Assembly: GCA_964591175.1 (NCBI GenBank)
Contig: CAZQAF010000005.1
Location: forward strand, 18,256-82,255
Direction of reading: 5' to 3'
Length of the DNA stretch: 64,000 nucleotides
Source of the DNA: an uncultured Desulfobacteraceae bacterium
GTDB taxonomy: Bacteria; Desulfobacterota; Desulfobacteria; Desulfobacterales; UBA11574
Both the position numbers and the translations under genes were made by a program. Positions 5,215-51,176 of the stretch are shown here, one piece after another. Every line of letters starts with the position of its first letter. The stretch's first letter is position 1. The notes beneath the pieces were generated by a model. The model ran no database searches. It was not told the origin of the DNA and saw nothing but the letters and a program-made list of their open reading frames with translations.

Positions 5215-5393
5215 ACCGGCCATCGTCGGGTTGATGATACGGGTATAATCATATTTAAATAGTGCCTGAACGTAACTTTCCATATCGGCACTAAATTGAC
5301 GCTGTCATCTGGAAAGACAACGGCCTTATCAGTAGATCAAAGACGAGCAGGGTTATATGCGTGTTTTCCGCTTAATTATTTGACGATATCAGC

Positions 5394-6080
5394 GTGCCTG
5401 TTTTTCTTTTATCCGATACCGTTGGCTTTCCTCCGCCCTACCTTGCGTCCAAAGAAGGCTTGCTGGCCGTTGGGGGTGATCTCGGCATAAAACGGCTGAT
5501 TCTTGCCTATCGAATGGGAATTTTTCCATGGTTTTCAGATGGTGATCCGATTCTTTGGTGGTCGCCTGACCCTCGCCTTGTGTTGTATCCTTCCGAAATT
5601 AAAATCTCAAAAACCTTAAAAAAAATCATAAAAAAAAATGTATTCAAGGTAACCATGGACATGGCATTTGATGAGGTTATCAACCAGTGCGCACAAGTTC
5701 GCTTGCAAAAGAATCAAGGCACATGGATCGTCAAAGAGATGATCGATGCTTATTGCGAACTTCATAGATCCGGCTATGCACATTCAGTGGAAGTCTGGCA
5801 ACAGGAGGAACTGGCCGGGGGGTTATACGGCGTTTCTCTCGGAAAGTGTTTTTTCGGAGAATCCATGTTCAGCCGAGTCAGCAGCGCATCAAATGTCGCC
5901 CTCGTCAAGCTTGTTAAATATATTAGCAACTTATCGTTTGATCTGATTGATTGTCAGGTCCGCACCGAGCATTTGATCCGCTTCGGTGCCAGAGAAATCC
6001 CAAGAAAGCTTTTTTTAAGTCAACTTGAAAAATCTCTTGATGCGCCGACTCAAAAAGGAAAATGGGAATATATGATCTAA
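5394..6080 (+). CDS. aat: Leucyl/phenylalanyl-tRNA--protein transferase
   Basis: GTG start, 228 aa. FPPPYLASKEGLLAVGGDL and LAYRMGIFPWFSDGDPILWWSPDPR blocks are typical of L/F-transferase. Sits downstream of clpS-clpA (N-end rule trio). Confidence 0.9.
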   Translation: MPVFLLSDTVGFPPPYLASKEGLLAVGGDLGIKRLILAYRMGIFPWFSDGDPILWWSPDPRLVLYPSEIKISKTLKKIIKKNVFKVTMDMAFDEVINQCAQVRLQKNQGTWIVKEMIDAYCELHRSGYAHSVEVWQQEELAGGLYGVSLGKCFFGESMFSRVSSASNVALVKLVKYISNLSFDLIDCQVRTEHLIRFGAREIPRKLFLSQLEKSLDAPTQKGKWEYMI

Positions 6081-6430
6081 ACACCGAACTTTTTTTAAAT
6101 ACGGACAGGTTCAACGTCGTGTGTCATTTTTTTGGCGTTTTCTCTGAAGACGTATCCGCTTATTTTTGACAGGCCTTCCTTCAACATTCAAACCTTTTGA
6201 TGCAGATCCAATACTCAACCTTGTGAGAAATGATTTGAAGTCAGCGGCTGAAATACTTTCTTTAAGGTAAAATGGCGTTTTACGCAATATCATAAAACCC
6301 CGTATATAAAGAGGTTTATACGCAATAAATATTCTGATACCGGTATGTTATATCGTTTTTGCGTCCTATGGATCTTCATGCAATTCAACTGTGTTGTCGC
6401 CATCGCAATCAATTGATTTCATCAAAAATA

Positions 6431-6450
6431 ATTTTCCCCAATTTTCCCCT
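6431..6450. repeat. Tandem 10-bp direct repeat ATTTTCCCCA / ATTTTCCCCT
   Basis: Read directly at 6431-6440 and 6441-6450, immediately upstream of the duplicated sigma-54 promoter unit. Confidence 0.6.
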
Positions 6451-6460
6451 CTTTTTATTC

Positions 6461-6476
6461 TGGCCTGAAATTTGCA
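6461..6476 (+). promoter_or_regulatory. Putative sigma-54 (-24/-12) promoter, copy 1
   Basis: TGGCCTGAAATTTGCA has GG-N10-GC spacing identical to the consensus TGGCAC-N5-TTGCW. It lies about 175 nt upstream of the pilin ATG at 6649. Confidence 0.55.
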
Positions 6477-6483
6477 TTTATTC

Positions 6484-6499
6484 TGGCCTGAAATTTGCT
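6484..6499 (+). promoter_or_regulatory. Putative sigma-54 (-24/-12) promoter, copy 2
   Basis: TGGCCTGAAATTTGCT, part of a perfect 21-nt direct repeat of copy 1 (6455-6475 and 6478-6498). Confidence 0.55.
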
Positions 6500-6648
6500 G
6501 TTGTTCCAAATAATTATATGTTCATCCGGCGCTGCATCCTTTTTCCGGATTTTTTTGTAACAACGGACCGGCAGCTTTTTGGGTTTTCAACTTCTGAAAC
6601 GCTATGATTCGATAAGACTCACAATCAAAAGACAGGAGTACAGATACC

Positions 6649-7323
6649 ATGATCATCCGAATTAAGAACAAATGGCGATATTTGTCGGATAAAAGAGGGT
6701 TTACGCTTATTGAAATGGCCATTGTGCTAATCATCATCGGCATCATCATCGGGGCGGTGGTCAAGGGAAAGGACCTCATCCGAAGCGCAGAGCAAAAGAA
6801 AATTTACACGAAATATCTGAATGCATGGCGTATGGCCTACGCCAACTTCTATGACCGGACCGGAAAACGGCTGGGGGATTTTTATAATACCTTCGGTTCG
6901 TCGGGAGGGCAGGACGGAAAGGCCGACACAGATAGCAACAATGACGGTTCGATCAGCGATATGGAACGCGGATATCTTAAAACCGGAGATCCGGCAGGAA
7001 CCGGCTTCAGAGGGCTGGACACCGTCGGCCTGACTGCGCCTTCAACCAATACCGGTAATTGCTGGGAATATACCTATACCGATAAAGACGGCGGCGGTCA
7101 CAGATTATCTATAGCATTTAAATACGATCCGAATGGCAAGTACAATTACATGTGGATTAGCGAGCTGCCCAATGAGCTGGGGATGGCGCTGGATACCATC
7201 ATCGATAATGAAGCGAACGGCACTTCCGGGGATTTTTTATGTTTCGATCCGGGTGATGCCGTCAATTCAGACTGGAAGGCGCCCTCAACGGAAGTCAGCG
7301 CCCGCTGGAAAATGGATTTTTAA
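6649..7323 (+). CDS. Type IV pilin / pseudopilin-like protein
   Basis: Leader MIIRIKNKWRYLSDKRG is followed by FTLIEMAIVLIIIGIIIGAVV: the prepilin peptidase G/F cleavage and N-methylation motif, with Glu at +5. AGGAG lies about 10 nt upstream of the ATG. The globular part is Gly/Asp/Thr-rich. Confidence 0.87.
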   Translation: MIIRIKNKWRYLSDKRGFTLIEMAIVLIIIGIIIGAVVKGKDLIRSAEQKKIYTKYLNAWRMAYANFYDRTGKRLGDFYNTFGSSGGQDGKADTDSNNDGSISDMERGYLKTGDPAGTGFRGLDTVGLTAPSTNTGNCWEYTYTDKDGGGHRLSIAFKYDPNGKYNYMWISELPNELGMALDTIIDNEANGTSGDFLCFDPGDAVNSDWKAPSTEVSARWKMDF

Positions 7324-7327
7324 AAAG

Positions 7328-7837
7328 ATGTCTACGATAAAAATATTTCGATCCGGTTTGGTGACCGGTCTTCTCGTGGTGCTGTGTTTTTCGGCGGGGT
7401 ATTTTTTCCTTTCCGGTTACCAGCGGTATATTGTCAACCTGGACAAAAAAGCGGCATTGATCCGGCAGGCCGAACTGCTCAATCATCGACAAATCGACAG
7501 AAAGCAGAAATGGCAAGACATTATGAAAGTCAATCGATTTGTGAAAAATGCCGAGTTGTTGGGATTGGTACGAAAAAAATGGGCGGTTTATCATGTGGAT
7601 ATTCAGGATTCGGTCAATTTTACGGAAATGAGGAAATTATTAACCCAATGTACAAATGGAGATTCTCATTATTTCAAACCGATTTCATTTCACCTTAAAT
7701 CAATAAAAGCGATCGACAACAAAAAAAATACATCGGGTATGACGTCTCACCGTCAAAAAGGAGATATTCTCATGGTGCTCAAAGGCGCATTTTTCGTGAA
7801 AAACAATACTGGAATACCGGATGATGAAAAAAAATAA
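7328..7837 (+). CDS. Hypothetical membrane-anchored protein in pilus cluster
   Basis: I chose the ATG at 7328 (MSTIKIFRSGLVTGLLVVLCFSAGYFFL, N-terminal TM helix). The ORF-track extension back to 7133 overlaps the pilin gene out of frame. No recognisable motif. Confidence 0.6.
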   Translation: MSTIKIFRSGLVTGLLVVLCFSAGYFFLSGYQRYIVNLDKKAALIRQAELLNHRQIDRKQKWQDIMKVNRFVKNAELLGLVRKKWAVYHVDIQDSVNFTEMRKLLTQCTNGDSHYFKPISFHLKSIKAIDNKKNTSGMTSHRQKGDILMVLKGAFFVKNNTGIPDDEKK

Positions 7838-9119
7838 AAAACAATACGTCCTCGAGCTGGATGGTCTTTTCTACCATTTAAAAGATAGCCGTTTAAGACA
7901 AATTGCCGATTTAAAAGAAGTCAATGACGCGTATTGTTTTGTCACGGACCTGCAGGAAACGATTTCAAGAACCATGACTGTCGAAGCGCCGGCCAAATAT
8001 GCGGAATTTGTGGTTCGCAAAAAACTCCAGGAATCGGGCGATTTTGATGAGCCGGTGTCCGTGATTACGCATTGGAAAAAGAAAAGAGGCAAAAATACCA
8101 CCGATATATTTTTCACAGCGCTTCCAACACGCCAATACCACGTCTATCTTGAAAAAATTCGGACAAGCGAAGACGGCATTCTGATGATTCCTTTATATAC
8201 GCTGCTATATAATGTCTTAAAACAAATGCATTCGGAAGATCCCATTGCCGTCATATTTCAGCACGGGCGATTTGCCGACGTGATTGTCGGCAACAAAAGC
8301 CATATCTATTACTCGAATCGATGTGTTGCATTCGACAAGAGCGAAGCGCAAATCTCTGTGCTCTGGGATACCGTTCGGACAGATATTCAAACCGCACAGA
8401 CCGAAAACGGAATGAAGGTAAAAACGGCCATTCAACTCAGCTGGATCGATAGCGGAGAAAATCCGGAATGGACTGAAAACGAGGAATATGAATGGTGTCA
8501 TTTGGAAGAAGAACCCATATCGTTTGATGATGATACGTATTTGGTCTCATTTTCAAATGCGATAAGAAGACGATCGGGGAACGGCGCAATTACACCAAAA
8601 ATAGAGAAGCTTTATTATCACACGCAAAAATGGGCGGCACCGCTCAACATTTTTTTGCTTGTTTTCCTGTTGGCAATAACAGGCGGATATTTCTTATGCC
8701 GGAATAGAGCGGATCTTGTTGAAAAACAATTGAAACGAATGAACCGCCAGATCACAGGGCTAAGTGCCGATATTTCCATGAACGCGATCCCTGCTGAAAC
8801 ATACCGGGATACCTTCGAATTTATCAAAGATCTATCCTATTGCAAAAACTCACCTTCGTATCTGGATGTAATGAACGATGTTACGAAGGGACTTTCTTCG
8901 GATATGGAAACAGAAATCCTTAAGATCGATTATTCGGCCGATGCGATGACATTGGAGATATTCGGCCGGATTCAAGCGGATTTCGATTCGGCGCATAACG
9001 GATATCAGGAATTCATTTCATTCATGAAATCCAAAGGATATTCTGTCACGGAAAACAGGTTTGACACGAATATCCGTGAATCAAAATATCTTGCCAAATT
9101 TACAAAGAGGATTGGATGA
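7821..9119 (+). CDS. Bitopic pilus-assembly protein candidate (MshI / PilM-PilN-like architecture)
   Basis: 432 aa: a long cytoplasmic N-domain, one TM helix (APLNIFLLVFLLAITGGYFLC) and a periplasmic C-domain. Overlaps both neighbours (17 and 4 nt). Function assigned from architecture and position only. Confidence 0.55.
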   Translation: MMKKNKKQYVLELDGLFYHLKDSRLRQIADLKEVNDAYCFVTDLQETISRTMTVEAPAKYAEFVVRKKLQESGDFDEPVSVITHWKKKRGKNTTDIFFTALPTRQYHVYLEKIRTSEDGILMIPLYTLLYNVLKQMHSEDPIAVIFQHGRFADVIVGNKSHIYYSNRCVAFDKSEAQISVLWDTVRTDIQTAQTENGMKVKTAIQLSWIDSGENPEWTENEEYEWCHLEEEPISFDDDTYLVSFSNAIRRRSGNGAITPKIEKLYYHTQKWAAPLNIFLLVFLLAITGGYFLCRNRADLVEKQLKRMNRQITGLSADISMNAIPAETYRDTFEFIKDLSYCKNSPSYLDVMNDVTKGLSSDMETEILKIDYSADAMTLEIFGRIQADFDSAHNGYQEFISFMKSKGYSVTENRFDTNIRESKYLAKFTKRIG

Positions 9120-9643
9120 AAAGAAAATATAACGGACTTGTCGCGATCGTTATTATTGGCGCGGTTTTGCTTCCAACGGCGATTTATGCGGTTTATTCAT
9201 CCCAAGTTATCGGCAAAACAGATACCGCTCGGTTAAAGGTTTTCCCCTCTGATTTTACTGTTCCCGACGCTGCCGGTATGAGAAGAATATCCACCTTTGA
9301 AAAAGAGATGGTTGATATCTCCAACCCTAAAATCACGAAATCAATGCTGGATCGAGACGTTCGTTTCTGGCGTTATTCGGATCAAAATTATCATCGCGAT
9401 ATAACGAACAATCAGAGGCAAGAGGAGATAGATGCCAAAACAGCGCATGAATTAACCTTTGTTTTCGCATCGAGCGAGAAAAGATTTTGTATCATAGACG
9501 GCTCATTTTATGCTCAGGGCGCTGAACTTCCCGGCGGCGGAAAGATCGTGAAAATAGAACCGGACCGTGTTCGGGTGAAAAAAGGAAAATCAGCCCAATG
9601 GATACCGCTCTCGAAAACGACAAAGTGGGGCGAAATACAGTAA
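9116..9643 (+). CDS. Small N-terminally anchored pilus protein (PilP / MshK-like candidate)
   Basis: 175 aa with an N-terminal TM helix (LVAIVIIGAVLLPTAIYAVY). The C-terminal block FCIIDGSFYAQGAELPGGGKIVKIEPDRVRVKKG resembles secretin-interacting PilP/GspC-type domains. Context only. Confidence 0.5.
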   Translation: MKRKYNGLVAIVIIGAVLLPTAIYAVYSSQVIGKTDTARLKVFPSDFTVPDAAGMRRISTFEKEMVDISNPKITKSMLDRDVRFWRYSDQNYHRDITNNQRQEEIDAKTAHELTFVFASSEKRFCIIDGSFYAQGAELPGGGKIVKIEPDRVRVKKGKSAQWIPLSKTTKWGEIQ

Positions 9644-9713: not shown

Positions 9714-11213
9714 ATGAGGCAATTTAATGTCATCTGGATAATAATTTTGTTGTTCTTCATGGCGGGCTGCGCAACCAGAGCCCCTGCACTCAAGCCATTG
9801 TCGCTTCAGACCACCCAGAAGCATATCGAGTCCGAGTCCGAAAAACTGGATGCGGCACACAAAAAATTTGTTTCCGGTCTGGAAAAGACGACACCTCGGG
9901 TCATAAAAGCGGAACCGGTAATGCCGGTTTACAATCCATTGGAAGACCATATGGTCTCTTTTTCAATGATCAACGAAGATCTCAAGGCGATTATGTATTC
10001 TCTGTCCCAGTCCGTCGGGATGAACCTGATCATTGACCCGGCCGTCAATCTTGAGAAGAAATCGCTCACCCTCAATTTCCAAAACGTTTCTGCGGCTATT
10101 GTTCTGAAAGAGATACTGAATAGCTATGATCTTTGTTACGAGATTCAAGGGAATGTCATCCGTATTATGCCGTATAAAGAACAGATGTTCAGTCTCGATT
10201 TTCTGGATACCAAAACGAATACCAATTTCAATGTCGGAGGTGATGTGCTTGGTGCATCGGAAGAAACCTCCAGCGGATTAAAGGGTAAGTTTGAACTATC
10301 CGGACAGGCGGCCAAACAGGGAAATGACTATGATGTTGTTGAACAAATGATCTCCCGGATCATGTCTAAAAACGGAAAATATACGCTCAACCGGCTTTCC
10401 GGAAGTCTTTATGTTAAAGATACCCCTGGGGTTATCCAATCCATTTCAAAATTGATTAATCATTTCAAGGCGATGTTATCCAGGCAGGTACTCATTGAAG
10501 CGAGAATTATCGAAGTCGGGTTGTCGGATAAGTATAAATACGGCATTGATTGGAGGGTGTTGCGAGATAAGGCTGCCTCATTAACGGCAAAAACCAGTGT
10601 GGCCTGGTCACTGGGTAACGGACTGGTTTTCAGCCATGCCAATAATGAATTTACCATTGATGCGGCCATGGACGCCTTAATGACGTTTGGTAAGGAAAAG
10701 GTGGTGTCAAACCCGAGCATTCGCGTCAAACATGGAAAACCCGCACTCATCAGTGTTGGCACATCCTTTACTTATAAGAAAAAAGTCCAGACCACGCGGG
10801 AAGTGACGACCGGCACTGACAGGCAAATAACGGACGTCGATGTTTCTACCGTGTTTGACGGGCTTATTTTGGGAGTGATTCCCTTTATCGGTGAAAACCA
10901 AAGGATTTCTTTGCTGATCAATCCCATCAACAGTTCGGTTAATCGAGAAAGTTTGGTTCCGAAAAGCGTCGGATCGGGGGACCAGGAAATATCCCTTCCT
11001 CAGGTCAGAATCAAGGAAATGAGTACAACCATTGAGCTTACAAGCGGCGATGTTGTGGTTTTGGGAGGCTTGATCGATGACGTGCAAACCACGGAAGATA
11101 ATGGAGTGCCAATTCTATCAAGCATTCCCATATTGGGGTATCTTTTTAAAAATCAGACAAAAGATATAGAATCAAGGGAACTCGTTATTATTTTGAGTGT
11201 AAAGCTGGTATGA
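9714..11213 (+). CDS. Secretin lipoprotein (MshL / PilQ / GspD family)
   Basis: Lipobox FFMAGC. The C-terminal secretin signature is VVVLGGLIDDVQTTEDNGVPILSSIPILGYLFK...RELVIILS. Confidence 0.88.
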   Translation: MRQFNVIWIIILLFFMAGCATRAPALKPLSLQTTQKHIESESEKLDAAHKKFVSGLEKTTPRVIKAEPVMPVYNPLEDHMVSFSMINEDLKAIMYSLSQSVGMNLIIDPAVNLEKKSLTLNFQNVSAAIVLKEILNSYDLCYEIQGNVIRIMPYKEQMFSLDFLDTKTNTNFNVGGDVLGASEETSSGLKGKFELSGQAAKQGNDYDVVEQMISRIMSKNGKYTLNRLSGSLYVKDTPGVIQSISKLINHFKAMLSRQVLIEARIIEVGLSDKYKYGIDWRVLRDKAASLTAKTSVAWSLGNGLVFSHANNEFTIDAAMDALMTFGKEKVVSNPSIRVKHGKPALISVGTSFTYKKKVQTTREVTTGTDRQITDVDVSTVFDGLILGVIPFIGENQRISLLINPINSSVNRESLVPKSVGSGDQEISLPQVRIKEMSTTIELTSGDVVVLGGLIDDVQTTEDNGVPILSSIPILGYLFKNQTKDIESRELVIILSVKLV

Positions 11214-12169
11214 GCGTCATTTTCAGGACATTGAAAAAACTTAACACCGAATCAACGGGTGCAGGAAAAAGTATCGGCACACGGGTCCATAGAAAAAAAA
11301 TCTTTGGGTTCGATGCAGTACGCCACCCGTCTTCTGCTGTTCTTTTGCTGCTCGTCGTGTTCACAGTCTTAGGTGCAGGATCCCTTTTTGGTTATTTCAA
11401 GCTCCAGGACAAAAACAGTAAAAAGGCCGAAGCGGTTTTGATTTCAAGCGCCGATATCCGCCAATCAACGAATATGCCCCTTAACACAAAGATTGAAAAT
11501 AAAGGGAAAAAACGTTCGAATGAATCAAAAGCTTCAGCGTTAAATTCCATTGAATACCGCCCGCCGGATGCAAATCACAATCGCGCCCCAATGATTGATT
11601 CAGACCCAACGACAAATAACAAAGCGCGGTTGGCATTTATAAGAAAAAAAACCGATCCATCTCATATCGTATCGAAAATTAAAGCCAGACAACCGGATAG
11701 ATCCTCGACATCCCAAGAATCGACGACCCCTGATGTAAAGCAGGTTTTTCTTTCGAATGCAAAAAAGAACGCAAAAATTGCCCGTTTGATTTCGGATATT
11801 CATGGTGAGATGGGGCGCGGCAATAAAGATCGAATTGTAAAACTTTTTAATGAACTGGCAATGATAAAGGGACAAGACAACAATTATGTTCTCAAATTAA
11901 AAGCGGTTTGGCATATACGCAATCAAGAGTATGAGGACGCAGCAAATTTGTTGAGAACCGTGCTTTCGAGAAACGGGCTCGATCTGGAAGCAGGTCTCAA
12001 TATGGCAATTGTTGAGATCAATACCGGAAAGGAACAAAGCGCCTACCGGCGGCTGGAAAACCTTCAAAAAAGTTATCCGGACAGTATACGGCTGGCTGAG
12101 ATCCTTCAAGGTTTGAGACGATTATTTAACGGAGAGCAAATCCGACATTTCAGCACACACGATGGGTGA
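11210..12169 (+). CDS. TPR-like pilus biogenesis protein (MshN-like candidate)
   Basis: 319 aa with one TM helix (AVLLLLVVFTVLGAGSLFGYF), a low-complexity middle region and a helical-repeat C-terminus (AVWHIRNQEYEDAANLLRTVL...). 4-nt overlaps with both neighbours. Confidence 0.5.
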   Translation: MSVIFRTLKKLNTESTGAGKSIGTRVHRKKIFGFDAVRHPSSAVLLLLVVFTVLGAGSLFGYFKLQDKNSKKAEAVLISSADIRQSTNMPLNTKIENKGKKRSNESKASALNSIEYRPPDANHNRAPMIDSDPTTNNKARLAFIRKKTDPSHIVSKIKARQPDRSSTSQESTTPDVKQVFLSNAKKNAKIARLISDIHGEMGRGNKDRIVKLFNELAMIKGQDNNYVLKLKAVWHIRNQEYEDAANLLRTVLSRNGLDLEAGLNMAIVEINTGKEQSAYRRLENLQKSYPDSIRLAEILQGLRRLFNGEQIRHFSTHDG

Positions 12170-13743
12170 CGGCAAAGATGATGAAAACGGTTTTAGCTAA
12201 AGAAGAACAAGGCTGCCTCGATTTTTTCGGATTATATCATAATCCTTTTCCAGTGGCGCCGGAGGAAGAAAACTTTTATTTTTCCGGCCATATCGAACAG
12301 ATTCTATCTGAAATCATCTTTGGAATTAATGCTCGAAAAGGCTTCATGGTTCTGACCGGCGAGGTGGGACTCGGAAAAACCACCATCAGTCGAAGAATCA
12401 TGAACATTATCGAAAAACAGGGTATTGAGACATCGCTGGTCTTTTATACCGGTTTTCAAGATGTCGAACTGATTCGAGAAATAAACCGGGATTTCGGGCT
12501 GACGGCGGAGAGTTTGCTTTTCAGCGACCAGATGCATCTTTTGTACAATTTTTTGGTGGATCGAAATCGATGTAAAAAAAACTGCACCATCATCATTGAT
12601 GACGCACAGAATCTTGATCATAAGAGCCTCGAACTTCTTCGGATGATTTCAAATCTTGAAACAGGCGGGAAAAAACTGGTTCAGATTTTATTGGTAGGTC
12701 AGCCTGAGTTGATGGCATTGCTGGATTCAGAAGAACTCAGACAGCTAAAGAGCAGAATATTCATTCAAGCAGAGGTGAAATCCCTGACACCGGAAGAGCT
12801 CAAAGACTACCTTTCTTTCAAACTAAACCTGGCCGGAAACAGAGGACAAATAAGAATTCAAAAAACAGCTTTGACTAGATTATATAGGCTCAGCAAAGGA
12901 AATTTTAGACAGGTCAACCTGCTGATGGACCGATGTTTGTATGTCGCTTTCCTCCACGATACCAAGGAGATTACAGGAAAGATTGTCACGGAAGCATACA
13001 TGGATCTTCACCCTAAAAAATTGACACTTTTTAAAAAGCCGCTTATTTTGACGGCTTCGATGATATTGGTCTTATCGCTATTCGGTGGAATTGTTTATTC
13101 GGGTTTCAATCGGTATGTTCCCGGAATATCTTCAATCGCCGGAATCGACGCCACCTTAAAATGTGATAAGAGTCGATTCAGGTCTGAAGTCCCCAACGTT
13201 GCATGGCAGACAACGGACCGCACCGACGATAAAACCGATAACCATTCGATACGAACTATCGATATCCCCGAATCGGTGGGTAATTTTTTAAAAGAATATA
13301 AACTTGTCCAATATAAGATCCCTTTTTTTAAAGCCTTGAAGACCGATCGGTTTCAAGAGATAACGGAACTTATATACAGAAAGACAGGATACATGCTGAT
13401 CATGCTGGATCGTGTTTCAAATCAGCTTGAAAATAAATATGGAACACTAAAATATGTTTCAGGTTCGGCGAACCATCCGAAATTATATCTATTCTGGCGT
13501 CCTCCGATAATCGTTAAAAAGTTTTACTATTATTATAATGGAGAAGAAATACTTAGCCTTCAAAAGATGATGGCTAAAATCGGTCTGTATACCGCCCGAA
13601 TGGATGGGAAGGTTGGTAAGAATCTTATGCTGGCTGTGGTTGGTTTTCAAAAACAAATGGGACTTCCCGTGACCGGATATCCGGATGCAAAAACCATTTT
13701 CCTTTTATGCAGAAAAATGGAAGGCCTAAACAATGGTGCATGA
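12166..13743 (+). CDS. ExeA / MshM-like AAA+ ATPase with C-terminal peptidoglycan-binding domain
   Basis: Walker A GEVGLGKTT and Walker B IIIDDAQNL. One TM segment (LILTASMILVLSLFGGIVY). The C-terminal motif is PG_binding-like: GKVGKNLMLAVVGFQKQMGLPVTGYPDAKT. Confidence 0.8.
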   Translation: MTAKMMKTVLAKEEQGCLDFFGLYHNPFPVAPEEENFYFSGHIEQILSEIIFGINARKGFMVLTGEVGLGKTTISRRIMNIIEKQGIETSLVFYTGFQDVELIREINRDFGLTAESLLFSDQMHLLYNFLVDRNRCKKNCTIIIDDAQNLDHKSLELLRMISNLETGGKKLVQILLVGQPELMALLDSEELRQLKSRIFIQAEVKSLTPEELKDYLSFKLNLAGNRGQIRIQKTALTRLYRLSKGNFRQVNLLMDRCLYVAFLHDTKEITGKIVTEAYMDLHPKKLTLFKKPLILTASMILVLSLFGGIVYSGFNRYVPGISSIAGIDATLKCDKSRFRSEVPNVAWQTTDRTDDKTDNHSIRTIDIPESVGNFLKEYKLVQYKIPFFKALKTDRFQEITELIYRKTGYMLIMLDRVSNQLENKYGTLKYVSGSANHPKLYLFWRPPIIVKKFYYYYNGEEILSLQKMMAKIGLYTARMDGKVGKNLMLAVVGFQKQMGLPVTGYPDAKTIFLLCRKMEGLNNGA

Positions 13744-15394
13744 TAAAAAAATAAAACCCCTGGGTGTTGTATTAAAAGAAAAGGGACTTGTCACGGACGA
13801 GTACATCGGTTATGCGCTGCAGGAACAGAAGATCACCCGTGAAAAAATCGGAGAAATATTAGAACGACTCGGATTTGTTACGGAGAATGATATTGTTATG
13901 GCACTGTCCGAACAAGGCGGCGTTCCCTATATTGATGTGGATACTATCCTTCCCGAAGAAAATGTTCTTAAACTTTTCAATAAAAAATTATGCCTTAACA
14001 ATTCATTTCTTCCCTTTCGGAAAACAGAAAATTTACTGGAGATCGCAGCACATAATCTGATCGACGAGAAACTCGGACAAACCATCTCAAGACAGACGGG
14101 ACTGCTGCCGAAATTTTACATTTCCGAGCGCAAGAAAATCATTCGAGCCATCAATAAATTCTACTATTTTCTTGAAAATCCCGTTGAGAAACTCATTGAA
14201 AAAGAAGTTTATCTTCTTTCTCAAAGTGAAGAGATGGCAAGAGGGTTCGATAACTTGATCAAGCATATCCTGCATCTATCCGTCAAAATGCGGGCTACGG
14301 ATATCCATATCAAACCGATGAAACTGTCAACCAGCATTTCATTTAGAATTGACGGCGTCATAACATCGGTCTTATCCCTTCCGGTTGAGTTGAACCGAAT
14401 TGTGTCCAGCCTCAAAATGAAAGCGGATATGGATATTGCAGAACAGCGGTTACCTCAGGACGGACGGTTTTCCGCCACCATATTGAACAACAACTACGAC
14501 TTCAGGGTGTCCACCATTGTTTCACCCCTGGGCGAGAGCATGGTTCTTCGTGTTCTTCCCATGGAGAGTTCGGTGGCGGGTCTGGAACAGCTTGGTTTTT
14601 TTACGGAACATATCCAGACTCTGGAAAAAATGTTCAACGAACCTTTCGGCATCATCCTCATTACCGGGCCCACCGGATCCGGAAAATCGACGACCCTTTT
14701 TTCCGGAATCAGAAGACTTAACTTGCTTCAAAAAAATACCATCACCGTTGAGGAACCCATTGAATTCGACATCCCCTTGCTGCGGCAAACCCAGGTGAAC
14801 GAAAAAGCCGGATATACGTTTGCCAACGCCATACGATACTTCTTGCGGCATGATCCGGACGTCATTTTAGTGGGCGAAGTAAGAGATTCAGAGACTGCTG
14901 CCACAGCGGTAACCGCCGCGACCACCGGTCATCTGGTTCTTTCTACCATGCACACAAACAGCGCGATCGGTACCATCCCAAGACTCATGGATCTCGGTAT
15001 TCGACCATTTTTGATTGCCGACGCTCTTGTCGGAGTGGTCAGTCAACGACTTGTACGCAAAATCTGCAACGGCTGCAAAACGTCCTATGAGCCGTCCGAA
15101 CAAGAAAAAATTTACTTGAAAGATAGCAATATTGAAACGCTTTTCAAAGGTCAAGGATGCGAACTTTGCAGCGGTACAGGATACTTCGAAAGAACGCTGA
15201 TTTATGAACTTCTCTCCATCGACCAAAACCTGTCTCAATTGATTGAAAAAGGGGCCGATTTAAGCATGATTTTAAGTACGGCGAAAGCATCGGGCTTTGA
15301 AGATATTTTCGAAATATCGAGAAATAAAGTTAAACAGGGTATCACTACAACGGAAGAAGCCGTGCGCGCCCTGGGTTACATCAGACAACTGTAG
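13733..15394 (+). CDS. Type IV pilus / T2SS assembly ATPase (GspE/PilB/MshE family)
   Basis: Walker A GPTGSGKST, Walker B DPDVILVGEVRD and a tetracysteine CNGC...CELCSGTGY. The N-terminus has two tandem MshEN-like 24-residue motifs. Confidence 0.93.
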   Translation: MVHDKKIKPLGVVLKEKGLVTDEYIGYALQEQKITREKIGEILERLGFVTENDIVMALSEQGGVPYIDVDTILPEENVLKLFNKKLCLNNSFLPFRKTENLLEIAAHNLIDEKLGQTISRQTGLLPKFYISERKKIIRAINKFYYFLENPVEKLIEKEVYLLSQSEEMARGFDNLIKHILHLSVKMRATDIHIKPMKLSTSISFRIDGVITSVLSLPVELNRIVSSLKMKADMDIAEQRLPQDGRFSATILNNNYDFRVSTIVSPLGESMVLRVLPMESSVAGLEQLGFFTEHIQTLEKMFNEPFGIILITGPTGSGKSTTLFSGIRRLNLLQKNTITVEEPIEFDIPLLRQTQVNEKAGYTFANAIRYFLRHDPDVILVGEVRDSETAATAVTAATTGHLVLSTMHTNSAIGTIPRLMDLGIRPFLIADALVGVVSQRLVRKICNGCKTSYEPSEQEKIYLKDSNIETLFKGQGCELCSGTGYFERTLIYELLSIDQNLSQLIEKGADLSMILSTAKASGFEDIFEISRNKVKQGITTTEEAVRALGYIRQL

Positions 15395-15403: not shown

Positions 15404-16642
15404 ATGATGAATTACTTCAGGTATAAACTCATAAACCCCAACGGAAAGCCTTCTTCGGGTCTTATCAAGCTCCCTTATCAGGATGAGATATCAACGGCCG
15501 CCTATCTGGAAAGAAACGGGAGCATGGCTATTTATGTTTCAAAGCTTGGAAAATTTGAGTCTTTATTTCCGAAGTTGAATTCGTTTAGGCTGTCTAAACG
15601 AATGAAACGAACGGATCAAGCCAATTTACTGAACAATCTCTCCCTTCTTCTACGTTCCGGGATGCCATTGAACACCGCCCTCGAAGAAGTTGCACAAACC
15701 ATCTCCCATCCCGGATTGGCCGGCAATATCCAGGATATCGTCGGTGCTGTTCGAGGAGGCATGTCTTTTTCGGAGGCTGCCGGAAAATTCAGCGACATCT
15801 TTACTGAAACGGTTATCTGTCTCATTCGAATCGGTGAAGAAACAGGAAGACTCGATGAGATGCTAAAAGATGCCTCCGAACACGTAAGTCGGATGCATAC
15901 CATTATCAGCGACACTCAAAGAGCCCTCTTATACCCGATATTTGTATTATTTTCAATAGGCATCGGCCTTGTTTTTTGGCTTTACTATGTGGTGCCCAAA
16001 ATTCTTGAGCTTTTCAAGGAAATGAATGTCGCGCTTCCGACAATTACGGTTTATCTTCTAAAAATATCCGATTTTATTCAAACCCACTTTGTTTACTTGA
16101 TCGTGGGAATTGTTTCAATACCTATTTTCTTGATGACCGCTCGAAAGGGAAGCCGAAAGTTTAGAAAAGTCATCGATCGGGTGATGCTTAAACTCCCCGT
16201 ATCAAAAGCGATTATCTCAGCTTCTAATCTTGCCCATATCACCGAATATTTTTCTTTATTGATCAGATCCGGGATAAACATATTGCAAGCCGTCAAAATA
16301 TTAAAAGACAGCATACGAAATGAAATTTATCGAGATAAACTCGAAGTGGTGGGAAAAGAAATAAAACAAGGCAGCAGTATTTCGGAAGCCTTTGCCGGTG
16401 CCACAATTTTTCCGGCCTTTATCACACGGATGATCGGCATCGGTGAAGTGAGCGGAACCCTTGAAGAACAGTTGGGAAATATTGCCCGAGAATATACCAA
16501 AAGACTGTCCAATTTGGTTGAAATGATCGGGAAAATGATCGAGCCGATTATTCTTGTGGTGGCAGGCGCCATTTTTGCCGTTATTTTCTTGGCGCTGTTG
16601 CTTCCTGTTTACGATATGGTCGGTCATGTCGGCGGCATGTAG
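15404..16642 (+). CDS. Type IV pilus / T2SS inner-membrane platform protein (GspF/PilC/MshG family)
   Basis: 412 aa with two GspF-type cytoplasmic repeats separated by TM segments. Directly follows the ATPase. Confidence 0.9.
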   Translation: MMNYFRYKLINPNGKPSSGLIKLPYQDEISTAAYLERNGSMAIYVSKLGKFESLFPKLNSFRLSKRMKRTDQANLLNNLSLLLRSGMPLNTALEEVAQTISHPGLAGNIQDIVGAVRGGMSFSEAAGKFSDIFTETVICLIRIGEETGRLDEMLKDASEHVSRMHTIISDTQRALLYPIFVLFSIGIGLVFWLYYVVPKILELFKEMNVALPTITVYLLKISDFIQTHFVYLIVGIVSIPIFLMTARKGSRKFRKVIDRVMLKLPVSKAIISASNLAHITEYFSLLIRSGINILQAVKILKDSIRNEIYRDKLEVVGKEIKQGSSISEAFAGATIFPAFITRMIGIGEVSGTLEEQLGNIAREYTKRLSNLVEMIGKMIEPIILVVAGAIFAVIFLALLLPVYDMVGHVGGM

Positions 16643-16681
16643 CAAATCGGATCACCATAGAGCGGAACTTGCAGCGAAGAT

Positions 16682-19408
16682 ATGATTCATTTATCAAAGA
16701 ATAAAAAAAATAGCCTTTCGCCGGGATTTACCTTGATAGAAATGGCGGTAGTCCTGGTCATTGTGGGAATTATCATCTCGATCGTGGCAACGGTCTTGCC
16801 TTCCCTTATCAAGTCTTCAAAAGTCAAAAAGGCCCGGGCCATATTGGAAGAAGTGGACTATGCAATCCAGGGGTATGTTGCCGCCAACGGCCGCCTGCCG
16901 TTTGCGGATAATGGCACCACCGGCGAGGAGGATTCCGCAACGCCGACATATTTTGGAAATCTTCCCTATGTCACACTGGGCCTTTCTTCGGGCGATGATG
17001 CATGGGGAAACCGTCTGAAATACGGTGTAAACAAGGATTTAACCACCACGAATGTCGACACTTTGGGTGAGGCATTGAAAACAGCATGTTCGGATAACCC
17101 GGTAAATCCGGATAAACTCCATGTAAACATTAACGGCGTGCAGACGCACATGGCCTATGTCATCGTGAGCGGTGGTCTGAAAGATGAAAACGGCGCCGGC
17201 GGACTATTCGACGGGTTAAATCAGGTGGATGATGCGGGTTATGATGATCCGAACAGAATCATCGAATCCGGCGCTTACGATGATTTGATGATCGCCAAAG
17301 CATGTACGGTAATGGCCGGAGCTCAAGGGTTCGGTTTAGGAAACGGCAGTGGGAATAGCGGAAATTCCAACAGTACATCTGAAGTTTGTGACAATGGTGT
17401 CGACGATGACGGCGACGGTCACATAGATTGTGATGATCAGGACTGTTATAATGTTTCACCGTGCGGGCCGGGGGGCAGCAAGGTTTCGATCACGACCGCC
17501 TCCATCCCGGCCGGATACGTCAATGGGAGCTATTCGGCAGCCTTTAATGCCACCGGCGGGACAACGCCTTATGAATGGACCCTGACCGATAACGGTAATT
17601 TTTCCAACCTGTTTCTTCACACTTATCTCGGTCAGCTCTCCGGAACACTCGGCCAATGTCCCGGTACCTATACCATCGGCGTCCAGGTCAATGATTCCGA
17701 TACGGAAAACGATCCCGATCCCAATCCCAGCAATTTCACGATTCAGGTGAAAAACAATTTATCGATTTCACGAACCAGCGGTTCCGGAGTGGATATTTCC
17801 TGGAACAGTGTCACTCAGCAGGAAACCTTTCAAGCCAGCGGCGGACATATTGGAGACATTCAATGGTCCCTGGATGCCGGCGGCGCAACAGGCTTCTCAG
17901 TATCTTCCACCGGGAGTGACACGTGTAGCATCAAGAAGAACGGCATCTCTTCGGTGGGTTCCTACACCTTTACCCTTACAGCCACCGATGCATCCTGTCC
18001 AAGCAATACCGCAAAGATTATCCTGAGCGTTTCAATATTATCCAATGCCGGCGGTGCGCCTTTTACCGTCAATATGTCCGCGGAATGGCACATGGATGAA
18101 TGCAGTTGGGACGGTACAAGCGGAGAGGTTAAAGACTCCGGTGACAATGGACTTGATGGAACCGCTAAAAATGGTGCAAATACCATTGGTTCAGGAAAGA
18201 TTTGCAGAGCCGGATATTTTGACGGAAGCAATGACTATTTGGACATGGGGGACATTCTAAACGATGTTTTCGGAACAGGCAGCGATTCGTTTTCCGTGGC
18301 TGCGTGGATAAACCCTTTATCCCTGAGCGACTCCCAGACCAATCATGGTACCCAAAACTGTTTCTCGGCCAAGGCTTCAGATTCATATAACGACAATTTC
18401 GAAATCGGTGTTAACACTGACGGTACCATCCATGTTTATATCGATACTTTGGGAAAAGATAAGGATGCTGACCTTGGTACGGCCGGCAGTATCACCGTCG
18501 GGATTTGGAATTTTGTCGTTATGTCTTACAATAATGGTTCCGTTACCGTAACCGTCAACGATAAAAAATATCAAGATACCAGTACCTGGAGTGGGGGAGG
18601 GGGGCTGGATAACGCCGCCGGCAGTCCTTTTACCATCGGCAGTTCTCAGCATACCGACAACTATTTTAAAGGCAAGATCGATGAGGTAATGGTTTTCTCC
18701 AAAGCGTTGACCGATGAGGAGATCACTAGTCTATACTCAACGACTCATGCATGCACGGGATCATGCTATACGGAACCTTTGGCGGTGTATTATATGGATG
18801 AGGCTTCATGGAATGTCGGAACGGTCGGTGAAGTAAAAGATTCGTCCGGAAACGGTTATATCGGCACCCCTTACGGAAGTGCCGCAATCAATACCACCGA
18901 CAGCCATATCGGCTATTCCGGAGAATTTACCGGCAGCAATGGTTATATCGATATTTCCGGCCTTCCGGTTTCGACCTCATCCGGTGATCAAACCACCGTG
19001 ACCTTTTGGATGAAATGGCTTGGCGGAAACGGCGAGATGCCCATTGGATGGACTTCATACGATCTTTGGCTCAGCGGCGATCATTTCGGATTTAATACCG
19101 CGCAGGGAGATATCTACGGAATTGACGGAGCATCTGCAAAACTTGCCGACGACTGGCACCATATTGCCGCAGTGTTTACCAATAACGGTACATTACAAAA
19201 CAGCCTCTTCATCGACGGCGTAGAACAGTCTCTGAGCACGGTTCAAGGGTCGAGCCATGGGGACAGGACGGTGGGCTCGAATTTCAGGTTCAGTGGATGG
19301 CTGAACAATTCGAGTTACAGATTCAACGGCCTGATCGATGAGCTAAGAATATACAACAGGGGATTGTCTGACAGTGAAGTCTCAGACGATAAAGCGCTGA
19401 CCCACTAG
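16682..19408 (+). CDS. Giant modular pilin-like protein with Ig-like and two LamG/ConA-like lectin modules
   Basis: Leader MIHLSKNKKNSLSPG then FTLIEMAVVLVIVGIIISIV (prepilin motif). A Cys/Asp-rich motif CDNGVDDDGDGHIDCDDQDCYNVSPCG follows. Ig-like segments carry GGTTPYEWTL and ASGGHIGDIQWSL. Two LamG-like modules start at WHMDECSWDGTSGEVKDSGDNG and YYMDEASWNVGTVGEVKDSSGNG. They end in FKGKIDEVMVFSKALTDEE and FNGLIDELRIYNRGLSDSE. Confidence 0.85.
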   Translation: MIHLSKNKKNSLSPGFTLIEMAVVLVIVGIIISIVATVLPSLIKSSKVKKARAILEEVDYAIQGYVAANGRLPFADNGTTGEEDSATPTYFGNLPYVTLGLSSGDDAWGNRLKYGVNKDLTTTNVDTLGEALKTACSDNPVNPDKLHVNINGVQTHMAYVIVSGGLKDENGAGGLFDGLNQVDDAGYDDPNRIIESGAYDDLMIAKACTVMAGAQGFGLGNGSGNSGNSNSTSEVCDNGVDDDGDGHIDCDDQDCYNVSPCGPGGSKVSITTASIPAGYVNGSYSAAFNATGGTTPYEWTLTDNGNFSNLFLHTYLGQLSGTLGQCPGTYTIGVQVNDSDTENDPDPNPSNFTIQVKNNLSISRTSGSGVDISWNSVTQQETFQASGGHIGDIQWSLDAGGATGFSVSSTGSDTCSIKKNGISSVGSYTFTLTATDASCPSNTAKIILSVSILSNAGGAPFTVNMSAEWHMDECSWDGTSGEVKDSGDNGLDGTAKNGANTIGSGKICRAGYFDGSNDYLDMGDILNDVFGTGSDSFSVAAWINPLSLSDSQTNHGTQNCFSAKASDSYNDNFEIGVNTDGTIHVYIDTLGKDKDADLGTAGSITVGIWNFVVMSYNNGSVTVTVNDKKYQDTSTWSGGGGLDNAAGSPFTIGSSQHTDNYFKGKIDEVMVFSKALTDEEITSLYSTTHACTGSCYTEPLAVYYMDEASWNVGTVGEVKDSSGNGYIGTPYGSAAINTTDSHIGYSGEFTGSNGYIDISGLPVSTSSGDQTTVTFWMKWLGGNGEMPIGWTSYDLWLSGDHFGFNTAQGDIYGIDGASAKLADDWHHIAAVFTNNGTLQNSLFIDGVEQSLSTVQGSSHGDRTVGSNFRFSGWLNNSSYRFNGLIDELRIYNRGLSDSEVSDDKALTH

Positions 19409-30029: not shown

Positions 30030-33000
30030 ATGTCCCAAAAAACTGACATCAAGGAATATATTGATGCCCTGGTATCTTCCAAACGTTTGGGATCGCAGGT
30101 GGTGTACCATAAAATTTTGCCGGATCAACCCGCCTGCCTGTCACAGACGAAACTTCCGTGGCCCGAACCGATTCGGCGCATCATCTCATCCCAAGGGATA
30201 CGCGATCTCTACCGGCATCAGTCGGAGGCCGCTGATTTAATCCGTTCCGGGCACCATGTGGTGATTGCCACCCCCACCGCGAGTGGTAAAACACTGATTT
30301 ACAATCTTCCGGTTTTGGAAAACATACTTAAAAATTCCGAGTCAAAGGCCCTTTATATCTTCCCGCTAAAGGCTCTTGCCCAGGATCAACTGCGCACATT
30401 CGAAGCGCTGAGCCGATACAGCAATGAGATAGCGCCTAAAATTGCCATTTATGACGGAGATACATCGGCCTGGCATCGGAAACGAATCAGAGAAAGCCCG
30501 CCCAATGTTTTGTTGACCAATCCTGAAATGATCCACCTTTCCCTTTTGCCGCATCATCAAAAATGGGCTGATTTTTTTAAAAAACTGGAAATGGTCGTGG
30601 TGGATGAGGTTCATACCTACCGGGGAATCATGGGATCGCACATGGCCCAGGTTTTCAGACGGCTTCAAAGAATTTGCGCCTATTACGGGGCGTTTCCGAC
30701 CTTTGTGTTTTGCTCGGCGACCGTGTCCAATCCTGCCCAACTGACCCGACAGCTCACCGGGCTGAATGTCGACACCATCACAAAAAGCGGTGCGCCTTTG
30801 GGCAGAAAGCACGTTGTCTTTATCAATCCTGTTCAAGGTCCGGCCCAGACTGCTATACTGCTATTAAAAGCCGCGCTTCACCGGGGGCTGCGCACCATCG
30901 TGTACACTCAGTCGAGAAAACTCACCGAATTGATCGCTATATGGGCCGGGAGTCAATCCGGACCGTTTACAAACCGCATCAGCGCTTATCGGGCGGGGTT
31001 TCTTCCTGAAGAGCGAAGAGAAATCGAAGCAAAACTTGCCAAAGGCGAACTGCTGGCGGTGATATCCACCAGTGCCCTGGAGCTCGGCATCGATATCGGC
31101 GATCTGGATCTGTGCCTGCTGGTGGGATATCCGGGAACCGTGGTGGCAACCTGGCAACGGGGCGGCAGGGTAGGGCGAAGCGGACAGGATTCCACACTGG
31201 TGCTCATTGCCGGGGAAGATGCCTTGGACCAGTATTATATGCGGCATCCGGAAAGTTTTCTGAAACGGGAACCCGAAGCCGCCGTGGTCAACCCCTATAA
31301 TACCGAGATCCTTTCCAGGCATATCATTTGCGCCGCAGCCGAGCTACCGTTAAGGAAGAATGAACCGTTTGCGTCCGATGCGCATGTTCAAGAAGCGATC
31401 CACATGCTCACTGAAAACAACGCGCTTTTAACCAGCGGGGATGGAACGGAATTCTATTCCAGCCGAACAGCGCCCCATCGTCATGTGGATCTAAGGGGAA
31501 CAGGAAGCCGTTATCATATCGTGGGCAGCGGCGCCGGAAAAAACAAAGGAGAGATCGACGAATTCAGGGCATTTAAAGAGACGCATCCCGGTGCGATTTA
31601 TCTTCACAAAGGCGACACTTTTCTGGTGGATGTTTTGGATCTGGATACCAAAACCGTAAAAGTCTCAAAAGCCAAGGTCGATTATTATACCCGGGTCAGG
31701 TCTGAAAAAAATACGGAAATACTTGAAATATATGATTCAAAAAAAATATATGAAACAGAATTTTATGCCGGACGACTTAAAGTTACGGATCAAGTGGTGG
31801 GCTATGAAAAATGGCGGATACACACCAAAAGAAGATTAAGTGTTGTACCTTTGGATCTGCCGCCGTTGATCTTTGAAACCCAAGGCTTGTGGTTTAAAAT
31901 TCCGCTTCACATCCAGCGACAGGCTGAAGCGCAATATCTCCATTTTATGGGCGGGATTCATGCTGTTGAACATGCGGCCATCGGTATCTTTCCGCTGCTG
32001 GTGATGGCCGATCGAAACGACCTCGGCGGCATCTCAACCCCGATTCATTCCCAGGTGGGCAGTGCTGCGATATTTATTTACGACGGGGTCCCGGGTGGTG
32101 CCGGATTGAGCAGACAGGCCTATAAAAGGGCAAAAGATCTGATTGAAAATACCCTTGACGTGATCCGTGCCTGTCCGTGTGAATCAGGATGCCCTTCCTG
32201 CGTTCATTCCCCGAAGTGCGGTTCCGGAAATCGTCCCATTGATAAGGCGGCGGCGATTTTTATCTTAAATAAGATTATATTGGCGCAGGGTTCGAAGACA
32301 CCGAAAAAAGAACGTTTTCAGATATCTTCCCCGGCAAAAAGCGATCCGGTGCTTGGAAAAAACATTTCGTTACCGGCCAACTCATCAGTAGCGGCAAGGG
32401 GAAAAAATCCCGTGGGCCATCAGCGGCTTTTTCGAAAAAGATTGTATGCAAGGCGCAAAGGGCTAAAACGCAGCTTTATGACATCACCGGAAATCAACCC
32501 TCCGTCCGGAGAATCGGACCTTAGATTCTGTATTTTCGATATCGAAACACAACGGTCCGCCCAGGAAGTCGGCGGCTGGCATCGGGCGGATCTGATGGGT
32601 ATCAGCTGCGTTGTGCTGTATGACTCAACACAAGATCTATATTTCGAGTTTTTGGACAATCAGGTGAACGAACTTGTCGAGCATTTGAAAAAATGCGATC
32701 TGGTGGTCGGGTTTAATGTCAAGCGATTCGACTTTAGGGTGCTGGGCGGGTATTCGGATTTTAACTTCAAGAGCCTGCCCACCCTGGATATCCTTGAAGA
32801 AATTCACAACCGGCTCGGATATCGCCTTTCTCTGGATCATCTGGCCAGGGTGACCCTGGGCAAGGAAAAGACGGCAAACGGACTCCAGGCCCTTCAATGG
32901 TGGAAGCAGGGACGCATCCGTGAAATCATCGATTACTGTAAAAAAGATGTTGAGATTACAAAGGATCTTTTTTTATACGGCCAACGAAACGGCTACCTGC

Positions 33001-39237: not shown

Positions 39238-39248
39238 CAGTTTGCCTA

Positions 39249-41432: not shown

Positions 41433-41433
41433 G

Positions 41434-51165: not shown

Positions 51166-51176
51166 TTTATCCTCTA

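Follow-up and report, generated by a model that had tools for sequence, protein, structure and literature searches.

A 908-residue modular pilin with two LamG modules, a candidate tip adhesin of a compact MSH-like system in an uncultured Desulfobacteraceae bacterium

We looked at a large pilin gene in a 64,000-nucleotide (nt) stretch of DNA, hereafter the window, from an uncultured Desulfobacteraceae bacterium (assembly GCA_964591175.1, contig CAZQAF010000005.1, positions 18,256 to 82,255 of the forward strand). Its product of 908 amino acids (aa), called the big pilin below, appears from its sequence to be a modular type IV pilin that shares with just one other pilin a compact system resembling that of the mannose-sensitive haemagglutinin (MSH) pilus. 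With a probability of about 0.6, we propose that the big pilin is a low-abundance adhesin displayed at the tip of a filament made of the other, small pilin, and that it perhaps primes the assembly of this filament; the tip position, the processing and the ligand are predictions.

The open reading frame (ORF) of the big pilin runs from ATG to TAG at positions 16682-19408 of the forward strand, as in the initial annotation of this DNA, and the mature protein is of 93.8 kDa with an isoelectric point of 4.2. The annotation had described a prepilin N-terminus followed by a Cys/Asp-rich motif, two immunoglobulin (Ig)-like segments and two laminin G (LamG) modules. All the motifs that it quoted were located, and the same layout was recovered by domain annotation (N_methyl, two Laminin_G_3 stretches, weak He_PIG and PKD matches) and by AlphaFold modelling (a confident pilin helix and head, two Ig-like and two LamG domains). 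Along the gene, the parts are the following:

16682-16726, forward strand: class III leader peptide, aa 1-15 with Gly15 last (MIHLSKNKKNSLSPG/FTLIEM); Pfam N_methyl and TIGR02532 above their cut-offs.
16727-16888, forward strand: start of the mature protein and its alpha-1 helix, aa 16-69; mature positions 5, 14 and 25 are Glu (E5), Gly (G14) and Pro.
16889-17329, forward strand: globular pilin head, aa 70-216, with a weak resemblance to GspG; short beta-strands in the AlphaFold2 (AF2) model at a predicted local distance difference test score (pLDDT) of ~85-95.
17330-17377, forward strand: disordered Gly/Ser/Asn linker of 16 residues, aa 217-232; pLDDT <50 in both AF2 models.
17378-17476, forward strand: acidic four-Cys repeat, aa 233-265 (CDNGVDDDGDGHIDCDDQDC...C); NF033662 acid_disulf_rpt below its cut-off.
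17483-17752, forward strand: Ig-like domain 1, aa 268-357; AF2 beta-sandwich with pLDDT ~86-93, weak He_PIG match.
17753-18046, forward strand: Ig-like domain 2, aa 358-455; AF2 beta-sandwich, weak K319L-like PKD match.
18074-18751, forward strand: LamG/concanavalin A (ConA)-like module 1 (LamG1), aa 465-690; Laminin_G_3 at aa 514-681, AF2 jelly-roll.
18752-18769, forward strand: C-x-G-x-C-Y connector, aa 691-696; C691, C695 and Y696 invariant in alignments of 27 and 70 sequences.
18770-19396, forward strand: LamG/ConA-like module 2 (LamG2), aa 697-905; second Laminin_G_3 stretch, AF2 jelly-roll with pLDDT ~90.

The N-terminus shows the class III signal of type IV pilins, that is a short basic leader, a glycine, a hydrophobic N-terminus and E5; SPGFTLIEM occupies aa 13-21, with the junction between G15 and F16. 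The protein scored 25.8 bits with NCBIfam TIGR02532 (IV_pilin_GFxxxE, cut-off 16.3) and 22.2 bits with Pfam N_methyl (cut-off 21.2). G15, F16, T17, L18, I19 and E20 were unvarying in the alignment of 27 homologues, and G-1, F1 and E5 were invariant in both the 27- and the 70-sequence alignments. In the full-length AF2 model, built from the 70-sequence alignment (mean pLDDT 84), alpha-1 is a 52-residue helix at aa 18-69, and the pilin module folded alone by AF2 also reached a pLDDT of 84. The head is predicted to be pilin-like in topology and weakly GspG-like. The GspG family TIGR01710 matched aa 15-129 (E 6.6e-11, 42.4 bits, cut-off 88.85) and Pfam T2SSG (PF08334) matched aa 44-130 (E 0.01, 16.3 bits, cut-off 21); with both profiles under their curated cut-offs, the big pilin is not a member of the GspG family. 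The best pilin matches of the module by Foldseek were also GspG structures, 3gn9_A (E 0.72, target template modelling score (TM) 0.44) and 3g20_B (E 5), and neither was significant.

Beyond the linker, the Cys/Asp-rich motif CDNGVDDDGDGHIDCDDQDCYNVSPCG corresponds to aa 236-262, or nt 17387-17467; the initial annotation had its end exactly and its start, given as 17381, 6 nt too early. The acidic double-disulfide repeat NF033662 (acid_disulf_rpt) matched aa 232-261 with 27 bits for a cut-off of 41. C236 was unvarying in the 27-sequence alignment, C250, C255 and C261 were so in the 70-sequence alignment too, and the aspartates 241, 243, 245, 252 and 254 were conserved. This segment was poorly modelled, with low AF2 confidence. 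The motif D[DEN]DGDGxx[DN]C (17387-17467; L006-L080 elsewhere) recurs in many unrelated proteins, from Saprospiraceae, Flavobacteriaceae, Planctomycetota, Myxococcota and some archaea, and it looks like a widely shared small spacer module, probably Ca-binding. For the two Ig-like domains, the quoted motifs GGTTPYEWTL and ASGGHIGDIQWSL were found at aa 292-301 and aa 385-397. The profile matches, He_PIG at aa 270-343 (E 0.006) and K319L-like PKD at aa 375-448 (E 2e-4), were below the Pfam cut-offs, and the predicted domains rest mainly on the AF2 beta-sandwiches (pLDDT ~85-93).

The C-terminal half was recognized by Pfam Laminin_G_3 with an E of 7e-39 over two stretches. The LamG motifs start at aa 469 and 703 and end at aa 680 and 899, and LamG1 and LamG2 are genuine internal repeats (29% identity, E 1e-11). 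LamG1 had PDB sequence matches to 4qvs_A and 5hon_A, the latter also found by Foldseek (target TM 0.75). Against the PDB, Foldseek placed this half among LamG/ConA-type lectin modules, with the arabinan-binding domain 4 of AbnA (target TM 0.75), laminin LG4-5 and neurexin LNS as neighbours; the matches also included Hc domains of clostridial neurotoxins and, with their lectin-like domain, trans-sialidases. The big pilin thus falls under the definition of modular pilins (Raynaud 2021, PMC8179133), with an N_methyl module, Laminin_G_3 and a linker between them. One other family was tried and rejected: TafC (NF052521), a subunit of the Tat-dependent haloarchaeal fimbriae Tafi (PMC11821415), reached 49.6 bits for a cut-off of 410, with a match confined to LamG1.

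The big pilin gene is the last of a ten-gene cluster encoding an MSH-like machine. The nine other genes are:

6649-7323, forward strand: small prepilin of 224 aa, candidate major pilin, first gene; N_methyl and TIGR02532 above their cut-offs.
~7334-7837, forward strand: ~165-aa protein with an N-terminal hydrophobic stretch, in a GspM/PilO-like position; no family match, start codon uncertain.
7821-9119, forward strand: 432-aa protein with one internal hydrophobic stretch, in a GspL/MshI-like position; conserved in L003 and L005.
9116-9643, forward strand: 175-aa protein with a weak GspC/PilP-type C-terminal domain (weak T2SSC, T2SSB and SctD matches); synteny conserved.
9714-11213, forward strand: secretin of the MshL type; Pfam Secretin E 2.6e-34, TIGR02519 pilus_MshL 252.5 for a cut-off of 250.2.
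11210-12169, forward strand: tetratricopeptide repeat (TPR) protein in the MshN position; TPR_19, adjoining the secretin in relatives too.
12166-13743, forward strand: AAA_22 ATPase with a peptidoglycan-binding domain, MshM/ExeA-like; AAA_22 E 1.9e-21, PG_binding_1 E 8.7e-11.
13733-15394, forward strand: assembly ATPase, MshE-like, with an MshEN cyclic di-GMP (c-di-GMP)-binding N-terminus; T2SSE E 3.5e-112, MshEN E 2.2e-12.
15404-16642, forward strand: inner-membrane platform GspF/MshG; T2SSF E 4e-48 over two stretches, ending 39 nt before the big pilin gene.

A prepilin motif was present in just two ORFs of the whole window, those of the small and the big pilin, which resemble each other in the leader and at the beginning of the helix and nowhere else. 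The small pilin has two cysteines, C138 and C198, forming a C-terminal pair, and is not specifically MshA-like. For the ~165-aa gene, the mechanical ORF (7133-7837, 234 aa) overlaps the end of the small-pilin gene by 190 nt and homology starts only at ~7328, so that the true start is probably the ATG at ~7334; the gene shows 30% identity (E 4e-17) to its counterpart in L084 and holds the same position in relatives. The 432-aa protein had no Pfam, NCBIfam or PDB sequence match and would be GspL/MshI-like by its position and its single hydrophobic stretch. The MshE-like ATPase scored 53.9 bits with NF053729 (cut-off 38) and bears two tandem LGxxLxxxGLVxxxxIxxALxxQ motifs at its N-terminus. Neither mshB/C/D/O/P/Q-like nor GspH/I/J/K genes are present in the locus. 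Scans for promoters and terminators gave no more matches than shuffled sequence did and were set aside. We call the cluster MSH-like on gene content and Pfam/NCBIfam profiles, and not on the MacSyFinder profiles of Denise et al.

The same genes could also be read as a machine of the T2SS (type II secretion system) kind or a short pseudopilus. The big pilin would then sit on a periplasmic stalk, with its ~700-residue extension threading the secretin, and would display the LamG modules or hold or escort a secreted partner, as in the CofB-CofJ pair. The GspG proteins that top both the family and the Foldseek matches of the pilin module speak for this, as do the peptidoglycan-binding domain of the ExeA/GspA-like ATPase, the weak GspC/GspB-type matches of the 175-aa protein and the fact that no retraction ATPase was found among the window ORFs scanned. 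However, every GspG match was under its cut-off or not significant, and the secretin reaches the equivalog cut-off of MshL and not of GspD. Moreover, the assembly ATPase bears the c-di-GMP module MshEN, GspH/I/J/K genes are absent, no obvious exoprotein gene is conserved alongside the cluster, and a separate 220-aa pilin is kept as the first gene. We consider this arrangement unlikely, and we retain a surface filament with the big pilin at its tip.

A homologue search with the big pilin gave 218 proteins at E <= 1e-5, which argues that its domain pattern is not due to chance. Among the best 120 of these 218, 108 carry GF[TS]L[IV]E, while the remaining 12, which begin within the helix or beyond it, seem to be fragments or to have mis-called starts. 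The initial annotation had reckoned with a chance resemblance should homologues generally miss the pilin N-terminus, and this was not what we observed. Over the first 55 mature residues, the mean majority-residue fraction of the 108 homologues was 0.81. The GFTLIEM N-terminus is thus almost invariant across more than 100 homologues of uncultured Desulfobacterales/Thermodesulfobacteriota. All the names with an organism among these best 120 were metagenome-assembled genomes (MAGs), mostly of Desulfobacterales, 'Deltaproteobacteria' and Thermodesulfobacteriota, with one 'Proteobacteria bacterium'. A scan of species-representative genomes, dominated by proteins sharing the acidic Cys repeat alone, contained at least five true relatives among the matches listed, all of them MAGs from the same groups and from Syntrophaceae. 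A tblastn search against plasmids for annotated MSHA loci returned generic LamG proteins alone (Streptomyces, haloarchaea, Bacillales).

Several architectures were found in the family: proteins of ~900 aa with two LamG modules, proteins of ~1,130-1,590 aa in which He_PIG domains are added and the LamG/pentraxin-type modules number three or four, proteins of ~770-820 aa whose C-terminal half has no assigned family, and others of up to ~1,800 aa. In the Desulfobacterales MAG locus L001, two big-pilin paralogues lie in tandem (4305-6965 and 6991-9288), and L002 and L005 have single genes of 1,540-1,810 aa instead. It seems that this family took either of two routes, duplication or the accretion of modules.

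Then, the surroundings of the big-pilin genes were compared. The big pilin or a short orthologue adjoins the gspF machine in 7/7 related loci with flank sequence (L002, L003, L005, L081, L082/L083, which are one locus in two samples, L086 and L087). In the first five, a homologue sharing 37-57% identity and ending in 2 to 4 or more LamG modules, or in another kind of C-terminus, lies beside gspF-mshE-mshM-TPR-secretin and two or three small genes. No further prepilin ORF was found within 10 kb of the big-pilin homologues, where the motif was confined to the big pilin or its tandem copies. The small pilin belongs to a family of 464 homologues and is the first cluster gene in L084 and L085, on the contigs carrying P0117 and P0116. 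To judge by these loci, the conserved unit is the machine plus two pilins, one of ~220 aa and one large. This bears on whether the N-terminus could be a mere signal-anchor that resembles a prepilin, in a LamG protein anchored in the membrane, periplasmic or at the surface, that has nothing to do with the filament. The N_methyl score of 22.2 is barely above its cut-off of 21.2, and processing by a prepilin peptidase is itself a prediction. Yet G/FTLIE and the next 50 residues are nearly invariant in the family, the gene adjoins the filament machine at every locus with flank sequence, and orthologues made of the pilin module alone fill the same slot, so that this explanation is essentially excluded.

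Other features of these loci differ from the window. The big pilin is co-directional with gspF in the window, with a spacer at 16643-16681, and it or its short orthologue is convergent in 7/7 related loci; the window lineage apparently inverted the gene. Between the genes of the TPR protein and the MshM-like ATPase, relatives have one gene more, whose product of ~165 aa has a hydrophobic stretch at its N-terminus (L084 15632-16129, L085 15740-16234, L081 17445-17945); no counterpart was found by tblastn anywhere in the window, where the TPR and ATPase genes meet at 12166-12169. PilZ-domain genes stand beside the cluster in two relatives (L085 9145-9816, L081 3204-3554), one of them directly upstream of the small pilin; no PilZ gene was seen among the window ORFs scanned, which were not all of them.

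The short orthologues are informative about the origin of the big pilin. With the pilin module alone (aa 1-230) as query, 339 clusters were obtained at E <= 1e-10, many of the proteins having just 200-290 aa. Two stand-alone orthologues, of 225 aa and 264 aa, fill the big-pilin slot in L086 and L087, convergent to gspF; in these loci the gene order matches up to the end of the sequence, which precedes the small-pilin position. One of the two, P0410, shares 41% identity with the big pilin over aa 16-203. Since bare orthologues occupy the same slot, the adhesin modules were grafted onto an older pilin: the second pilin predates these modules and received them in one lineage. Such a pattern is the 'tinkering' described for modular pilins by Raynaud et al. 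(PMC8179133).

The modules themselves were then compared one by one with those of the window big pilin. P0016 has 86-93% identity in each module except LamG1 (38%), and P0069 has 65% in LamG2 and 37% in LamG1. In P0040, LamG1 is at 71% and LamG2 at 29%, with Ig domains that are not shared; in P0068, LamG1 is at 74% and the Ig-like domains at 35-37%, and LamG2 is not shared. These uneven identities show that the LamG modules are exchanged independently of their carrier, as expected for ligand-recognition parts. Silent LamG or Ig cassettes, which would hint at antigenic variation, were sought across the window and none was found.

Altogether, we propose the following course for the big pilin. 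A prepilin peptidase encoded outside the window would cut after Gly15, and the conserved alpha-1 helix would dock the protein into a filament consisting chiefly of the ~220-aa pilin (6649-7323). Assembly would be carried out by the MshE/MshG/MshL machine and is probably under c-di-GMP control, as suggested by the MshEN motifs and by the PilZ genes beside the cluster in two relatives. The big pilin would be incorporated first and in few copies, reach the distal tip in this way and perhaps prime assembly. From there, the Ig-like stalk would project the two LamG lectin-like modules, which may bind a carbohydrate or surface ligand, and the exchange of LamG cassettes between lineages would vary the specificity. 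The tip position is proposed because ~75 kDa hangs from each subunit while the filament must cross the secretin; the same steric argument was made for PilB and PilC of Streptococcus sanguinis (PMC8179133, PMC9934059). The analogy with type IVb pili suggests that the protein may also prime assembly, and the absence of GspH-K/MshB-D,O,P-type genes agrees with this.

Several observations weigh against this proposal. The alpha-1 conservation of the small pilin is 0.59 when that of the big pilin is 0.81, and so high a value would be expected if the big pilin were a major subunit or formed a homo-oligomer. E5 is kept, and therefore nothing marks the big pilin as the very first subunit. Foldseek against the PDB gave no significant solved pilin for the pilin module alone, and the subclass of the head is not assignable. 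LamG folds bind proteins and lipids too, and a carbohydrate is not the sole class of ligand possible. Every relative of the big pilin is known from metagenome-assembled genomes. Finally, neither a prepilin peptidase (Peptidase_A24) nor the retraction ATPase PilT was found among the window ORFs scanned; for the peptidase, this agrees with MSH loci, which typically lack one (Denise et al. 2019, PMC6668835).

The conservation of the helix could stem from close contacts with the machine, from homo-oligomerization at the tip or from a role as major subunit. If the last held, the filament would be a thick, lectin-coated 'bottle-brush' polymerised from the big pilin, in which the 220-aa pilin would be a minor or initiating subunit. 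Besides the much higher conservation of alpha-1 than in the small pilin, measured on the first 55 mature residues, the retention of E5 and G14 fits such a fibre, and the flexible 16-residue linker would permit side-on display. On the other hand, an extra ~75 kDa for each rise of ~1 nm should, from geometry, make a fibre much wider than the secretin channel. Tandem paralogues with differing C-termini and the exchange of cassettes fit an exchangeable accessory and not a structural core, and orthologues without any module occupy the same slot in the same gene order, as far as the sequence extends short of the small-pilin position. The small pilin also has the usual first-gene position and the C-terminal Cys pair. 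We regard a big-pilin fibre as highly improbable and keep the small pilin as the candidate major subunit.

A broader scheme can be drawn from the tip proposal, which we hold to be doubtful in this full form. The cluster would be a minimal two-pilin system of the MSH/type IVa (T4a)-T2SS branch that has converged on the type IVb logic, with a giant pilin, probably a homo-oligomer joined through its unusually conserved helix of 55 residues, that nucleates and caps the filament. Its exchangeable LamG cassettes (2 to 4 or more, in proteins of up to ~1,800 aa) would set the target of adhesion; in anoxic sediments this might, for instance, be partner cells or particles of polysaccharide.

Part of this was already known: the architecture of a lectin-bearing modular pilin is catalogued as common (Raynaud 2021, PMC8179133), with N_methyl+PF13385 and N_methyl+PF05345 among the 15 commonest modular-pilin architectures and a largest cited example of 860 residues. 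The initial annotation had called such a pilin unusual, which is right for its size, at the extreme end, and overstated for its class of architecture. What is new is a coherent, uncharacterised family of ~770 to ~1,800 aa in uncultured Desulfobacterota-type bacteria, together with its strict linkage to a two-pilin MSH-like machine, its bare-carrier orthologues and its cassette exchange. If our proposal is true, one gene defines the purpose of a filament system in widespread uncultured relatives of sulfate reducers. The family is also a clean natural experiment on the way pilins gain functions: one carrier pilin, invariably next to the same machine, occurs bare or bearing two LamG modules, four or more of them, or C-termini of unrelated kinds. 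A system of two pilins and ten genes would also be a compact model of how a bulky tip subunit starts assembly and passes a secretin. The value in practice is modest as long as there is neither an organism nor a heterologous host to work with.

Away from the cluster, three other regions of the window were observed. On the reverse strand, 43078-60848 encodes four MttB-superfamily methyltransferases, two corrinoid-binding proteins, two pterin-binding methyltransferases and a RACo-type reductive activator, and looks like an island for the demethylation of methylated amines or betaine. Also on the reverse strand, 36826-42333 encodes consecutively a sucrose synthase, a fused sucrose-phosphate synthase/phosphatase and a PfkB sugar kinase, and a full sucrose module is notable in a presumed relative of sulfate reducers. 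On the forward strand, 30030-33050 encodes a 1,006-aa DEAD-box helicase with an MrfA Zn-binding domain and a C-terminal RNase H-like domain.

We finally compared the big pilin with known systems. MshQ carries LamG-like regions, and the initial annotation had named MshQ-type proteins as companions of MSHA loci. As an analogy of function a comparison with the big pilin holds, since both are large proteins of MSH-type loci proposed as tip adhesins. As a homology it does not: the MshQ of Vibrio cholerae MSHA is a non-pilin counterpart of PilC/PilY1 encoded downstream of mshDOP, proposed as a tip adhesin and predicted to join the minor pilin MshP by C-terminal beta-strand addition (PMC12918778). 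The big pilin, unlike MshQ, has its own pilin module, in a locus without mshB/C/D/O/P-like genes. Its assignment as a member of MshQ was rejected on its own prepilin N-terminus, the lack of other minor pilin genes and the lack of any NCBIfam match named MshQ.

With GspG, the big pilin shares the mature FTLIEM, and GspG is its best resemblance in family and fold, sub-cut-off or not significant as given above. The proline is at mature position 25 in the big pilin and at 22 in GspG, ~690 residues lie beyond the GspG-like part, and the GspH-K partners are absent.

In its organization, the locus resembles type IVb systems, which have a single minor pilin gene and a tip formed by a homotrimer of its product (PMC12918778). 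Like the loci of CofB (CFA/III, colonization factor antigen III, of enterotoxigenic Escherichia coli (ETEC)) and TcpB (toxin-coregulated pilus (TCP) of Vibrio cholerae), that of the big pilin has one major and one large modular minor pilin, the latter made of a pilin domain, a linker and then beta-rich domains. CofB acts as an adapter for the secreted protein CofJ (PMC8179133). The machine of CofB and TcpB is of type IVb, whereas that of the big pilin is of the MSH/T4a-T2SS type (MshL, MshE, MshM, TPR). No match in sequence or fold was seen between the proteins, and the domains appended to the big pilin are different in kind and much larger.

PilC of S. sanguinis is a glycan-binding, ConA-like modular pilin that was modelled in a complex at the pilus tip (PMC9934059). 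Both PilC and the big pilin have a class III signal, an N-terminal pilin module and, through a linker, a module of the ConA/LamG superfamily. PilC works in a monoderm without secretin, with two major and three minor pilins (PilA, B, C), whereas the big-pilin locus is that of a diderm, with a secretin and two pilins. PilC also bears one lectin module, whereas the big pilin has two LamG modules (relatives have 2 to 4 or more) and, besides these, two Ig-like domains and the acidic Cys repeat. By its architecture, and not by sequence comparison, the big pilin would work like PilC, as a lectin-bearing pilin at the tip of its filament.

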